A stretch of 64,000 bases of DNA, taken from the sequence record NC_054931.1. One strand, 5' to 3'. This DNA is from Escherichia phage T2. Under the pieces are notes generated by a model. That model ran no database searches. It had not been told where the DNA came from and saw only the letters and a list, made by a program, of their open reading frames with translations. Positions 18,709 to 53,892 of this stretch are shown here, piece after piece (positions within the stretch are counted from its first letter, which is position 1; each line of letters begins with the position of its first letter). The position numbers and the translations under genes were made by a program.

Positions 18709-19689
18709 TTATTTCAGAAGAGTAACCTCAGCGATTTCTTCCCAACCGTTTTTGTCGGTCATAATAAAGTCAGCAAGATAAAGAGCAGTACGCAGTGAAA
18801 CATTGCGTAAACGGTTAACATTGACTTTCATCCATGATAATGCTTTATAAGTTTCTTCATCAGAAAGACCGCGCTTTTGCATCATGTCAGTTGAAAGAAT
18901 AACATCTTCAACCCTGACCATAATTTCTTCATTAGTGTGAACACCCAAATCCAAATAAACTGAGCGGGACACTAATGCTTGTAAATGTGGAGCAAGTTTA
19001 GTACCACGGTCTAATTCGCGGTCAATGTCAACGTTTGTGATAAAAACAATCGTTCCTTTAAATTCAAACTCACGCTCAATGCCTTTTTCTTCTAAGTAAG
19101 AAGATGCAGTGCTCCAGCAGACTTTACGGGTCTCTCCAGTGTCCAGAGCAGCTTTCAGAAGATTAAGAATATCCATATCAGAGAAAACATCCACATCATC
19201 AATCAAAAGGACAGAATTCTCTTCACGATTATTCCAGAGCTGTTCATAAAGACCGATACCAGAGATTTTACCGTTAATGCTTTTATATTCAATGTATCCA
19301 ATATCATTTGCTTTATTTAAAGCTTTATCTAAAGAATACGTTTTACCAATACCTGCTGCTCCCGAGATAATTAATGAACGAATGTTTCCGTTAATAATAC
19401 CATTCGTCATCATTCCCATAACATTAAATCTTTTATTAATGCGGGTTTTCATATCTTCATATGATTCTTTAACTTCTTCAACTTTTACACCATCATATGA
19501 AATGTCTGATTTGTAAACCCAAACACCGCGACGTTTACCGTCAATTTCAACAAAAACTTTACCATCTCCTTGTGCATCTACCGGAGCATTATCTGGGAAC
19601 CATTCACCTAAGAGCTCAAAAGTTCCAGAGATTTCTTTACCGAAGTAGATACCCTTATTGATAGTTACAGTTTTCATTTTATTCTCCAA
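18709..19689 (-). CDS. P-loop ATPase (AAA-like)
   Basis: 326-aa ORF with Walker A GAAGIGKT and Walker B LLIDDVD. Confidence 0.65.
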   Translation of the reverse strand: MENKMKTVTINKGIYFGKEISGTFELLGEWFPDNAPVDAQGDGKVFVEIDGKRRGVWVYKSDISYDGVKVEEVKESYEDMKTRINKRFNVMGMMTNGIINGNIRSLIISGAAGIGKTYSLDKALNKANDIGYIEYKSINGKISGIGLYEQLWNNREENSVLLIDDVDVFSDMDILNLLKAALDTGETRKVCWSTASSYLEEKGIEREFEFKGTIVFITNVDIDRELDRGTKLAPHLQALVSRSVYLDLGVHTNEEIMVRVEDVILSTDMMQKRGLSDEETYKALSWMKVNVNRLRNVSLRTALYLADFIMTDKNGWEEIAEVTLLK

Positions 19690-19707
19690 ATCCGTATCAG
19701 TTGATAG

Positions 19708-19741
19708 TTGTATAGTACCATAAAGCTTTATGCTTGTAAAC
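19708..19741 (-). promoter_or_regulatory. T4-type early promoter
   Basis: Forward tgtaaac at 19735-19741, -10 atagta at 19712-19717; upstream ttgtgaaaaattttt. Confidence 0.6.
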
Positions 19742-19761
19742 CATTTTGTGAAAAATTTTTG

Positions 19762-19790
19762 AAATAAAAAAGGGGACCTCTAGGGCCCCC
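19762..19790 (-). terminator. Rho-independent terminator downstream of ORF 19800..20300
   Basis: Hairpin ggggacc-tcta-gggcccc, followed on the minus strand by TTTTTTATTT. Confidence 0.6.
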
Positions 19791-19799
19791 TTTATGCTT

Positions 19800-20300
19800 T
19801 TATTCCATTTCTATTATATGCATGCTCTTTTTGCTATCAAAATATATGTTTTTAACTGTTAACTCCGAATTAATTGGCAATAAAAACTCTCTTTCATAAT
19901 CCACCATACAAAGATTATCATAAAGCTTATTAAGCTTATTATCATCAGTCTGGCTAGATTCTTCAATTGCGATTAAATTTTCTAAAATTTCAATCATAGC
20001 AGTTGAATAGTCAAAAACGTTTGCATTTTTTAACACTATTAAAACATTAGTCATATAGCGTTCTGCTGCAAATGTTTCAGCTATATGAGATTCACTACTA
20101 AAGGAAGTTATTCTTTTAAATTTGATTCTCCTATTAACTTCAAACTTATAAGATAGTACTTCCTCTATTGTAAGTCCTCTAAAAAGTACGTCTTTAATCT
20201 CAAGTTTGTCTTTAATGTAATCATTAACACGCTTATGATTAAAATCATTAATTTTGTTGCCAAGGCATTTCATTAAAATATGCATTGTGTTTCTCTTCAA
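19800..20300 (-). CDS. Hypothetical protein with R / S-x-S / E-x-E motif order (candidate mono-ADP-ribosyltransferase-like)
   Basis: 166-aa ORF (first codon TTG; ATG start MHILMK 5 codons in); motifs VLFRG, TSFSSES, YEREFLL. Confidence 0.3.
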   Translation of the reverse strand: MKRNTMHILMKCLGNKINDFNHKRVNDYIKDKLEIKDVLFRGLTIEEVLSYKFEVNRRIKFKRITSFSSESHIAETFAAERYMTNVLIVLKNANVFDYSTAMIEILENLIAIEESSQTDDNKLNKLYDNLCMVDYEREFLLPINSELTVKNIYFDSKKSMHIIEME

Positions 20301-20329
20301 TTTTTAAAGAACAATTAATTAACTACAAA

Positions 20330-20363
20330 TATATTATAATATGCTTTATGATAGAAGTAAACA
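20330..20363 (-). promoter_or_regulatory. T4-type early promoter
   Basis: Forward agtaaac at 20356-20362, 17-bp spacer, -10 rc TATAAT at 20333-20338. Confidence 0.6.
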
Positions 20364-20382
20364 ACTTTGTGAAAAAATTTTT

Positions 20383-20410
20383 GAAATAAAAGGGGAGCCC
20401 GAAGGCTCCC
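20383..20410 (-). terminator. Rho-independent terminator downstream of ORF 20413..21426
   Basis: Hairpin gggagcc-cgaa-ggctccc; on the minus strand followed by CTTTTATTTC. Confidence 0.6.
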
Positions 20411-20412
20411 TA

Positions 20413-21426
20413 TCATTTATAATAACTTCGGTGGTTTTCAAGATAAACCTTCTCAAGGAAGTCATCCCAGAAACCCATGTCTACTTTTTGCTGCATACCG
20501 TTCTTAGAAGCTTCAGTAGATGCTGCTTCTACTTGATCGACCACATCTTCCAAAAACTCTTGAACCGTTTTAAATGGATGTTTACCCAACTTCACGTCGA
20601 GAATAAATGGAGCGTCTTGAAGTGGATAAACCAAGTCACCAGTTTTGTAAATTTCCAATAGTTGAAGTCCACCACGACAAGCATGGCTCAGAGCTTTCCA
20701 GTCAATGCCTTCGTTGGCTTCGGCCTTACGGGCACGTTCACCATATTCAGCATCTAATTTGTTCAGTGACTGCTTAAGCTCAATAAGAGAAAGCGTTGTC
20801 TGATATTTACGACCCAATACAGTGTAGAACGTTTGTGGGCCTGTTTTCTCATGATTATGGAACACCCATTCACAGAATTCGTTTTCTGGAAGACGATGCT
20901 TAATATCTTCAACTTTAGTACGACGCTGCTTAATAGAACCATCTTCTTGGTAATCAACCCATTGCTCGGGGATTTGATTAACTACTTTCAATACATCACG
21001 TAATGCAGCCAAACGAGAACCCTTGACACCGTATTTAGAAGCTTGCTTACGGACATATCCTAAATATGATTTCATGTTAGTCGTATAAAAACGAGAACGG
21101 TTGTCTTGAATAAACTTCCACACATCAGGCAAATCAGATTTAACCACTAGTTCAGGTTGAGTGTGAAGCATATCTAACGCTACAGTTTCACCATCTGCTG
21201 CTAATTTAAAGAAATATTTAAGACTGTATAGTTCATGGTCAATATCATCTTTAGTGTTTTTAGATGATGTGTTGTTAGTGTTTTTGCTCATGTGCTCTTT
21301 GACATTTCCGATAAGAATATCGCGAGCAGGAGGAACAAAAATTTCTTTAAAATCTACATCAGATTCTGGGGTAGAAGTTCCATAAAGATGACTACCAAAA
21401 TAGCTTTTCATTACTGTTTTCATCAT
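20413..21426 (-). CDS. Nucleotidyltransferase-fold protein (Pol-beta superfamily signature)
   Basis: 337-aa ORF with N-terminal FGSHLYGTSTPESDVDF (G-S ... D-x-D signature). Confidence 0.5.
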   Translation of the reverse strand: MMKTVMKSYFGSHLYGTSTPESDVDFKEIFVPPARDILIGNVKEHMSKNTNNTSSKNTKDDIDHELYSLKYFFKLAADGETVALDMLHTQPELVVKSDLPDVWKFIQDNRSRFYTTNMKSYLGYVRKQASKYGVKGSRLAALRDVLKVVNQIPEQWVDYQEDGSIKQRRTKVEDIKHRLPENEFCEWVFHNHEKTGPQTFYTVLGRKYQTTLSLIELKQSLNKLDAEYGERARKAEANEGIDWKALSHACRGGLQLLEIYKTGDLVYPLQDAPFILDVKLGKHPFKTVQEFLEDVVDQVEAASTEASKNGMQQKVDMGFWDDFLEKVYLENHRSYYK

Positions 21427-51217: not shown

Positions 51218-52084
51218 ATGTTCATTCAAGAACCAAAGAAATTGATTGATACCGGCGAAATTGGTAACGCTTCTACTGGTGATATCTTATTCGACGGTGG
51301 TAATAAAATTAATAGTGATTTTAACGCAATTTATAATGCGTTTGGCGATCAGCGTAAAATGGCAGTAGCAAATGGCACTGGAGCAGATGGTCAAATTATC
51401 CATGCTACTGGATATTATCAAAAACACTCTATTACAGAGTACGCAACTCCAGTAAAAGTTGGCACTAGGCATGATATTGATACCTCTACTGTAGGTGTTA
51501 AAGTTATCATTGAAAGAGGCGAACTTGGCGACTGCGTTGAATTTATTAACTCTAATGGATCAATATCAGTTACTAATCCTCTAACAATTCAAGCTATTGA
51601 TTCAATTAAAGGTGTTTCAGGTAATTTAGTAGTAACTAGCCCATATAGTAAAGTTACTTTACGCTGTATTTCATCTGATAATTCTACATCGGTTTGGAAT
51701 TATTCTATTGAAAGTATGTTTGGACAAAAGGAATCACCAGCTGAAGGTACATGGAATGTTTCTACATCCGGATCAGTTGATATTCCACTATTTCAACGCA
51801 CTGAATACAATATGGCTAAATTGCTAGTTACGTGCCAATCAGTAGATGGAAGAAAAATTAAAACAGCAGAAATAAATATTCTTGTGGATACTGTTAATTC
51901 AGAGGTAATTTCTTCTGAATATGCTGTCATGCGAGTTGGGAATGAAACCGAAGAAGATGAAATCGCTAATATTGCATTTAGTATTAAAGAAAACTATGTA
52001 ACGGCGACTATAAGTTCTTCAACTGTCGGTATGAGAGCAGCAGTTAAAGTTATCGCTACGCAGAAAATCGGGGTGGCTCAATAA
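51218..52084 (+). CDS. 9: Baseplate protein gp9 (long tail fibre socket)
   Basis: 288-aa ORF. Confidence 0.9.
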   Translation: MFIQEPKKLIDTGEIGNASTGDILFDGGNKINSDFNAIYNAFGDQRKMAVANGTGADGQIIHATGYYQKHSITEYATPVKVGTRHDIDTSTVGVKVIIERGELGDCVEFINSNGSISVTNPLTIQAIDSIKGVSGNLVVTSPYSKVTLRCISSDNSTSVWNYSIESMFGQKESPAEGTWNVSTSGSVDIPLFQRTEYNMAKLLVTCQSVDGRKIKTAEINILVDTVNSEVISSEYAVMRVGNETEEDEIANIAFSIKENYVTATISSSTVGMRAAVKVIATQKIGVAQ

Positions 52085-53892
52085 TGAAACAAAATATTAA
52101 TATCGGTAATGTTGTAGATGATGGTACCGGTGACTACCTGCGTAAAGGTGGTATAAAAATAAATGAAAACTTTGATGAGCTTTATTATGAACTCGGTGAT
52201 GGTGATGTTCCATATTCAGCCGGTGCCTGGAAAACTTATAATGCTTCATCAGGACAAACATTAACAGCAGAATGGGGAAAATCATACGCTATTAATACAT
52301 CTTCTGGAAGAGTGACTATAAATCTTCCAAAGGGTACAGTTAATGATTACAACAAGGTAATTAGAGCTAGAGACGTATTTGCTACATGGAACGTCAACCC
52401 AGTTACACTAGTAGCTGCTTCCGGCGATACGATTAAAGGGTCTGCAGTACCAGTTGAAATTAATGTTCAATTCAGCGATTTAGAACTAGTGTATTGTGCC
52501 CCAGGACGTTGGGAATATGTCAAAAATAAACAAATTGACAAAATTACCAGTTCAGACATTAGTAATGTAGCTCGTAAAGAATTTTTAGTCGAAGTCCAAG
52601 GGCAAACAGACTTTTTAGATGTTTTCAGTGGAACTAGTTATAATGTAAATAACATCAGAGTAAAACATCGTGGTAACGAATTATATTATGGCGATGTGTT
52701 TAGCGAAAACAGCGATTTTGGCTCTCCAGGCGAAAATGAAGGAGAACTGGTTCCTCTTGATGGATTTAATATTCGATTAAGACAGCCTTGTAATATTGGT
52801 GACACTGTTCAAATTGAAACATTTATGGATGGTGTATCGCAGTGGAGAAGTTCATATACAAGACGTCAAATTAGATTGTTAGATTCAAAATTAACGTCAA
52901 AAACTTCTCTAGAAGGAAGTATTTACGTTACTGATTTATCAACAATGAAATCAATTCCATTTTCTGCTTTTGGATTAATTCCAGGAGAACCTATTAATCC
53001 TAATTCTCTTGAAGTTAGTTTTAATGGAATTTTACAAGAATTGGCTGGAACAGTTGGAATGCCATTATTTCATTGTGTTGGTGCCGATTCAGACGATGAA
53101 GTAGAATGCTCTGTTTTAGGTGGAACTTGGGAACAATCTCATACCGATTATTCAGTTGAAACTGATGAAAACGGCATACCAGAAATTTTACATTTCGATA
53201 GAGTATTTGAGCATGGTGACATTATCAATATCACCTGGTTTAATAATGATTTGGGTACATTATTAACAAAAGATGAGATTATTGATGAAACTGATAATCT
53301 CTATGTATCGCAAGGACCGGGAGTAGATATTTCCGGTGATGTAAATTTAACAGACTTTGATAAAATTGGTTGGCCAAATGTAGAAGCAGTTCAATCTTAT
53401 CAACGCGAATTTACTGCTGTTTCAAATATCTTTGATACGATTTATCCTATTGGAACTATATATGAAAACGCTGTTAATCCAAATAACCCTGTTACATATA
53501 TGGGATTCGGCTCATGGAAATTATTTGGGCAAGGAAAAGTTTTAGTTGGATGGAATGAAGATATTTCGGACCCTAACTTTGCTCTAAATAACAACGATTT
53601 AGATTCTGGTGGAAATCCTTCGCATACTGCAGGCGGAACAGGTGGTTCTACTTCTGTTACATTGGAAAATGCTAATCTTCCTGCAACCGAGACAGATGAA
53701 GAAGTTCTAATAGTTGATGAAAATGGATCAGTCATTGTTGGTGGATGTCAATACGATCCAGATGAATCCGGTCCAATTTATACTAAATACCGTGAAGCTA
53801 AAGCATCTACTAACTCTACTCACACTCCGCCAACATCAATAACTAACATTCAACCATATATTACAGTTTATCGTTGGATAAGGATTGCATAA
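52084..53892 (+). CDS. 10: Baseplate wedge protein gp10
   Basis: 602-aa ORF. Confidence 0.9.

Follow-up and report, generated by a model that had tools for sequence, protein, structure and literature searches.

Host modification by the Alt, ModA and ModB enzymes of phage T4 is a classic system, and interest in it has been revived by the discovery of RNAylation by ModB. The function of ModA, a 200-amino-acid (aa) ADP-ribosyltransferase (ART) that acts on Arg265 of the RNA polymerase alpha subunit, is described in PMC2988021. ModB is a protein of 207 aa. It RNAylates S1 and L2, whereas ModA, which has the same motifs, shows no efficient RNAylation; the ModB R73A mutant is catalytically dead, and loss of ModB cuts the T4 burst size 4-12 fold (PMC10468400).

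T4-like phages also carry promoter-early stem-loop (PeSL) units, which are mobile regulatory cassettes (Arbiol et al., 2010, PMC2839356; Comeau et al., 2014, PMC4122927). The promoter consensus of the PeSL T4 group is TTTACW-N17-TAYWAT (Comeau et al., 2014, PMC4122927). In the published cassettes, close relatives differ in whether they have a given gene, the junction lies within a shared core, and the cargo consists mostly of ORFans.

The DNA considered here, termed the window, is a stretch of 64,000 nucleotides from Escherichia phage T2 (sequence record NC_054931.1). It contains a small minus strand gene that has the same kind of flanking units as the published cassettes, but in this case the cargo is a recognizable enzyme. 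It is likely that the product is a compact, probably active, arginine-specific NAD+-dependent mono-ADP-ribosyltransferase, which represents a third Mod-type paralogue of T2 carried on a mobile PeSL cassette. The gene and its motifs are as follows.

19800-20285, minus strand: coding sequence (CDS) of the short Mod-family ADP-ribosyltransferase, 161 aa (open reading frame (ORF) list, GenBank calls, PHROG 832, BLASTP, AlphaFold)
19800-19802, minus strand: stop codon of the ART gene
20175-20180, minus strand: codons of R36-G37, the R motif, aligned to R73-G74 of ModB and R72 of ModA
20097-20105, minus strand: codons of S61-F62-S63, the S-x-S/T motif, aligned to S99-F-T101 of ModB
19887-19895, minus strand: codons of E131-R132-E133, the E-x-E motif, aligned to E171-Q-E173 of ModB and E163-Q-E165 of ModA

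Membership in the Mod family

Sequence, profile and predicted fold all support placement of the product among the R-S-E mono-ADP-ribosyltransferases, in the phage Mod (ModA/ModB) family. The protein matches PHROG 832, "RNA polymerase ADP-ribosylase", with an E-value of 1.8e-23, and BLASTP aligns it to T4 ModB at 27% identity (E 1e-13) and to T4 ModA at 28% identity (E 6e-11). The Mod_ADP_RT family, PF26816, is found in precomputed Pfam assignments on the three closest database homologues, which are 54-94% identical to the T2 protein. A hidden Markov model (HMM) built for the family has the ART ORF as its sole match in the window (5e-65). It is on PHROGs, pairwise BLAST, PF26816 on the homologues and the fold search described below that the family link rests. 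The Pfam models ADPrib_exo_Tox (PF03496) and ART (PF01129) did not match the query. PF03496 is matched by distant proteins found with the family profile (for example P0055, at 2e-21), and the link between the query and PF03496 is therefore transitive only.

An initial annotation of this DNA had proposed an ART of the R-S-E class, and the sequence, profile and predicted fold agree with that proposal. It had also described the evidence as being at the level of motifs, a description now superseded by the PHROG 832, BLASTP, family-profile and fold results. The motifs themselves are present as it gave them, F-R-G at 40-42, S-F-S-S at 66-69 and E-R-E at 136-138, in the numbering of a 166-aa version of the ORF. 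Residue numbers used here refer to the 161-aa form and are five lower, so that the R41, S66, E136 and E138 of that annotation are R36, S61, E131 and E133.

Conservation of these residues was assessed in 44 representatives of the family. The arginine and the following glycine are kept in all 44, as is S61; the serine or threonine at position 63 is kept in 43, and E131 and E133 are each kept in 43. The R, S-x-S/T and E-x-E residues are in register with R72 and E165 of ModA and with R73 and E173 of ModB, and the correspondence to ModB R73, S99, E171 and E173 is one-to-one. As the motifs fall on invariant columns of the ModA/ModB family alignment, they are not due to chance. By this alignment R36, S61 and E131-x-E133 are the predicted catalytic residues. 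In the alignment to the family profile, moreover, the E-x-E stretch is matched to the motif EQEVLFP of XopAI, an ART of solved structure.

The mutationally defined residues of ModA and ModB are taken in part from PMC10468400.

The distance from R to S is 25 residues in the T2 protein and 24-26 in ModA and ModB, and that from S to the second E is 72 residues compared with 69-74. The spacing had been called atypical; this is so only in relation to C3-type toxins, and within the Mod family the spacing matches that of ModA and ModB.

Predicted fold

The AlphaFold2 model, made from a 12-sequence alignment, has a pLDDT of 90.9 and a pTM of 0.83. It displays the split beta-sheet ART fold of the R-S-E clade (C3/VIP2/cholera-toxin-like), and thus the comparison with ART folds that the initial annotation had suggested gives an ART-like and not an unrelated structure. 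Foldseek matches to the PDB with a probability of 1.0 include C3 exoenzymes, XopAI, Tre1, HopU1, ExoS, VIP2, iota-Ia, Vis and Certhrax. Among viral models (BFVD), the best non-orthologous matches are Mod-family proteins with TM scores of 0.76-0.88, a ModB and a ModA included; the ModB and ModA models score 0.78-0.88, with 0.78 for a ModA model. Sequence identity to R-S-E toxins such as Tre1 of Serratia proteamaculans (PDB 6drh), C3 and VIP2/iota-type components is 7-18%. These toxins differ from the T2 protein in motif spacing, and the T2 gene has neither an immunity partner nor a secretion context.

A short subfamily

The T2 protein does not have the first ∼37 residues of ModA and ModB and is about 37-46 aa shorter overall. 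A model of a ModB-type protein (pLDDT 89.5) displays four helices, at residues 5-14, 18-31, 34-45 and 50-62, ahead of the R strand, and the ∼37 extra N-terminal residues of ModB form two of them. The T2 protein thus departs from the full-length architecture, in which four N-terminal helices are part of a protein of ∼200 aa. It shares its starting point in the profile with many family members of 160-190 aa. Because short forms are common among distant members, the missing helices can be regarded as a mark of a subfamily and no bar to membership, and the short form looks like a subfamily and not an accident of truncation.

In an approximate neighbour-joining (NJ) tree, the T2 protein groups with its relatives of 94%, 61% and 54% identity in a clade of their own, apart from the ModA and ModB clades and beside other metagenomic forms of 175-189 aa. 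ModA is the nearest named branch to this short clade.

In R-S-E ARTs, the stretch just before E-x-E is the substrate-recognition turn. The sequence that leads into and includes part of this motif is VDYERE in the T2 protein, VSDEQE in ModA and IVREQE in ModB. The difference from both makes a different target preference plausible. ModB and the T2 protein belong to the same Pfam/PHROG family, have a helical hairpin ahead of E-x-E in predicted structures and have an early promoter, a predicted one in the case of T2. They differ in locus (srd-modA-modB for modB and nrdC.11/nrdC.10 for the T2 gene), as well as in the sequence before E-x-E and in the N-terminal helices. ModA, with catalytic R72 and E163/E165 in common with the T2 protein, differs from it in the same three respects.

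The flanking PeSL units

The ART gene lies between nrdC.11 (20413-21426) and nrdC.10 (18709-19689), and all three genes are on the minus strand. In T4, nrdC.11 and nrdC.10 are adjacent, with a 114-bp spacer. The units on the two sides of the ART gene are as follows, in the direction of transcription.

20393-20410, minus strand: terminator stem-loop after nrdC.11, GGGAGCCTTCGGGCTCCC, part of the upstream PeSL; identical in T4
20366-20392, minus strand: core repeat copy 1, CTTTTATTTCAAAAATTTTTTCACAAAG (TTTTATTTCAAAAATTTTTTCACAAA), the left recombination junction, from the alignment of T2 flanks with T4
20333-20361, minus strand: predicted early sigma-70 promoter of the cassette, TTTACT-N17-TATAAT (promoter scan, 10/12)
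19769-19793, minus strand: predicted intrinsic terminator of the ART gene, a 10-bp G+C-rich stem with a T-run, part of the downstream PeSL
19745-19768, minus strand: core repeat copy 2, TTTATTTCAAAAATTTTTCACAAA
19712-19740, minus strand: predicted early promoter of nrdC.10, TTTACA-N17-TACTAT preceded by a TG; the T4 nrdC.11/nrdC.10 spacer has a promoter of identical sequence

Both units conform to PeSLs: each consists of a stem-loop followed by an early promoter that matches the consensus. An early promoter and a terminator belonging to the gene itself had been claimed before, and as consensus matches both were recovered, at 20361-20333 and 19793-19769, respectively. In the window there are exactly two copies of the 17-nt core. 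A gapless search with a 24-nt PeSL core pattern found one copy only, since a 1-nt indel is present in the second.

T4 has one PeSL at this site, a chimera that consists of the T2 upstream stem-loop, the shared core and the T2 downstream promoter. If a cassette were inserted or deleted by recombination within the core, exactly such a chimeric spacer would be expected. The ART gene therefore shows a presence/absence polymorphism with its junction inside the PeSL.

A further promoter-like sequence (sigma-70 type, TTGATA-N16-TATAAT, 11/12) is found at 19813-19840 on the minus strand, inside the 3′ end of the ART CDS and just before the terminator. It may be a chance match in A+T-rich DNA or an extra start that feeds nrdC.10 by read-through.

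Distribution and mobility

Copies with at least 90% identity are found in about 42 of 50,697 phage records. The cluster formed at 90% takes in proteins of Tequatrovirus, of Citrobacter phage Moon (Moonvirus) and of Salmonella phage STML-198 (Gelderlandvirus). Two IMG/VR contigs of Moonvirus/Gelderlandvirus-like type (L015 and L016) have a cassette with 96-97% identity to that of T2, whereas their flanking genes are only 67% (nrdC.11) and 74-76% (nrdC.10) identical. The block of high identity begins at 20371, which is within the core repeat. The locus thus has the structure of a cassette and has been transferred between genera.

The scan of IMG/VR detected three loci only. An uncultured T4-like contig (L011, 4001-4546; L012, 2946-3491) has a short Mod homologue of 61% identity between regA and the DNA polymerase gene 43, and this site is a second insertion site for the short subfamily. 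The 181-aa product called there probably starts 24 codons too early. A homologue of 54% identity is found downstream of an nrdC.11 homologue.

The G+C content of the ORF is 27.4%, compared with 35% for the whole window, and is among the lowest 1.3% of windows. The excess of cassette identity over that of the flanks, the low G+C content, the two sites and the spread across genera indicate that the gene is horizontally mobile cargo. That the gene arose by recent duplication of the resident modA or modB was considered and is ruled out by the identity of only 27-28% to these genes, the separate clade, the low G+C content and the 96-97% identity between genera.

The junction of nrdC.11 and nrdC.10 carries other small inserts as well. 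In phage G29 (L019, 1066-1475), two more small ORFs, of 87 and 49 aa, are located between the ART gene and nrdC.10, and in Moon-like and STML-198-like contigs the cassette is flanked on either side by ∼255-270 bp of additional sequence. These ORFs and the extra spacer sequence make the junction a hot spot for small inserts.

Start codon and neighbouring reading frames

Escherichia phage T2 records, for example AP018813 at 51689-52389, match the region 19700-20400 with 100% identity. The ORF can be read as 166 aa (19800-20300, minus strand) from a TTG at 20300. The ATG at 20285, which would give the 161-aa product, is likely to be the better start, because the sequence AAGAG is present ∼8 nt 5′ of it, the starts of homologues coincide with it, and every GenBank record inspected (T2, SV76, GRNsp7, HY01 and G29) has the 486-nt CDS that begins there.

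One T2 record, PV958097, has a 33-aa CDS annotated wholly over the PeSL terminator/promoter region (20315-20416, minus strand), and a 106-aa plus strand ORF (20341-20661) is antisense to the 3′ end of nrdC.11. The 33-aa CDS, this antisense ORF and other plus strand ORFs were treated as spurious annotations or ORF-finder artefacts.

Of the two neighbouring genes, nrdC.11 matches an RlaP-type (RNA repair pathway) nucleotidyltransferase at 2.9e-10. The nrdC.10 product is a putative AAA-type NTPase, with weak AAA/STAND-NTPase matches (best 6e-5, under Pfam thresholds). As the cassette moves independently of both genes, no functional tie to the ART is drawn.

Relation to modA and modB

The initial annotation had regarded the ORF as additional to the canonical Mod genes, and this is borne out. 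T2 modA and modB are found near 10.5-11.8 kb of AP018813, ∼40 kb from the ART gene and outside the window, and the ART gene is not part of the srd-modA-modB-modA.2 early cluster. At least four phages, namely G29, ACG-C40, HY01 and Manna, carry the ART gene together with intact modA and modB.

In the T2 modB gene (AP018813, 11140-11761; L005, 641-1262; SV76, L004, 4255-4876), 2 bp are deleted near codon 135 (ATCAGC to ATGC), and the gene is thereby broken into ORFs of 142 and 42 aa, with loss of the E-x-E motif. The deletion is present in five of six T2-type records and in five of 499 records overall; it is missing from the T2 record MH751506 and from 494 other phage records. With only five of 499 records affected, it looks like a stock-specific lesion, and it is relevant to anyone who studies ModB with T2. 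In the frameshifted T2 stocks, the ART gene may be the only intact Mod-type ART gene besides modA. Compensation for a broken modB as a general rule was rejected in view of the four carriers with intact modA and modB, the intact gene of MH751506 and the low count of affected records; with modB intact in those four phages, the ART gene is not tied to modB loss in general.

Proposed function and alternative explanations

Transcription of the ART gene would start at its own sigma-70-type early promoter at the very onset of infection and would stop at its own terminator. The protein would bind NAD+ through a pocket formed by R36, S61-x-S63 and E131-x-E133, transfer ADP-ribose to one or more arginines of host proteins and contribute to host takeover. 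The gene would be an optional mobile module, moved between T4-like genera by recombination in the shared PeSL core. Catalytic activity, early timing and host-protein targets are our inferences, as is specificity for arginine, which is suggested by the E-x-E version of the motif.

A number of points weigh against this reading. T4 and most Tequatrovirus records do not have the gene, which is therefore dispensable. Of the four N-terminal helices predicted for ModB, the T2 protein has only the last two, and loss of the other two could affect stability, NAD binding or target choice. Local searches of Pfam-A, NCBIfam and PDB sequences, the last with the single sequence and with a profile, gave nothing significant for the query. 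The promoter and terminator are consensus matches only. In comparisons of T2 with the 94%-identical orthologues of the Moon/STML-198 type, nine replacements are found against one or two silent changes, counts too small to interpret. A literature search for studies of the T2 protein, or of a third or fourth Mod enzyme, found none.

The gene is intact and under purifying selection. All seven orthologues compared are intact and encode 161 aa, and dN/dS is 0.15-0.23 in the divergent pairs (T2 with HY01 and T2 with GRNsp7). Replacements between close orthologues cluster at codons 108-127 (19905-19962) and at the C-terminal codons 139-154 (19821-19869), which correspond to the tip and second helix of the hairpin before E-x-E and to the C-terminal strands. 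The clusters could reflect diversifying selection on a target-binding surface, with too few changes to go by.

It is very unlikely that the protein is a decayed, non-catalytic pseudoenzyme left from a Mod gene that lost its N-terminus, even though its reduced length, the two absent helices and its dispensability in most relatives are what such a remnant would display. A different explanation is that the gene duplicates modA, and that its product ADP-ribosylates Arg265 of RNA polymerase alpha and adds dosage or redundancy. Many records do name the protein "RNA polymerase ADP-ribosylase" or "ModA", and the short clade is nearer the ModA branch than the ModB branch. These names, however, are transfers from PHROG or BLAST, and the tree is approximate. 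Identity to ModA is no higher than identity to ModB, the substrate-recognition stretch differs, and carriers of the gene keep an intact modA, all of which make duplication of ModA function rather improbable. The best pairwise E-value is that to ModB, and the genes that tblastn matches beyond the orthologue group are annotated modB. A ModB-like enzyme would modify S1, EF-Tu, L2 and others, possibly by RNAylation with NAD-capped RNA, and would substitute for ModB in T2 with the modB frameshift. Such compensation would be useful given the effect of ModB loss on T4 burst size, and modB is truncated before E-x-E in most T2-type records. The ART gene and the state of modB do not co-vary, however, as the four carriers with intact modB and the undeleted T2 record demonstrate. 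In addition, because ModA shares the motifs yet RNAylates inefficiently, family membership does not predict RNAylation. A ModB-like role is thus also considered rather improbable.

An enzyme of counter-defence, or one with a novel target, would have a host immunity protein or a nucleic acid as its substrate for ADP-ribosylation, and this would explain why the cassette is optional and crosses genera. The patchy distribution, the recent transfer between genera, the two different genomic sites, the distinct clade and the clustering of replacements in the hairpin and C-terminus are in keeping with such a role. On the other hand, mobility of this kind is typical of any gene in the hyperplastic regions of T4, and the E-x-E of R-S-E ARTs favours protein arginine over nucleic-acid targets. 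A PADLOC search of the query gave no match, although its library comprises defence and not anti-defence proteins. This role is regarded as quite unlikely. Of the earlier suggestion of an uncharacterized host-takeover or anti-defence factor, "uncharacterized" stands, since no paper was found, and the anti-defence part has no specific support. Returning to the preferred reading of an arginine-specific mono-ADP-ribosyltransferase on a mobile cassette, a possible, and tentative, extension is that the short Mod clade as a whole (the T2 orthologues, the 54-61% relatives and the other forms of 160-190 aa) constitutes a third, functionally separate class of T-even ARTs, with a target that neither ModA nor ModB touches, and that it spreads among phage genera on a self-expressing PeSL cassette for a host-specific advantage. 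If true, the target might be a protein of host defence or of the stress response, or else a substrate to which NAD-capped RNA gives access.

Significance

The gene is already labelled in databases, with the names "ADP-ribosylase", "RNA polymerase ADP-ribosylase" and "ModA" given by homology (UniProt A0A2Z5WKQ8 and K4FJU3; GenBank BBF63258.1 and ULF50445.1). What is new is an uncharacterized short subfamily of a known enzyme family on a known type of cassette. As the family, its chemistry and the mobility mechanism are known and the gene carries homology labels, the finding is incremental. It nevertheless represents a clean case of a recognizable enzyme shuttled between genera by PeSL promoter-terminator cassettes, and at 161 aa the protein is a convenient minimal Mod enzyme for work on structure and specificity. 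A further Mod-type enzyme is thus encoded by T2 and about 40 sequenced relatives, and the short enzyme of T2 may account for part of what sets T2 apart from T4 in host takeover or host range.
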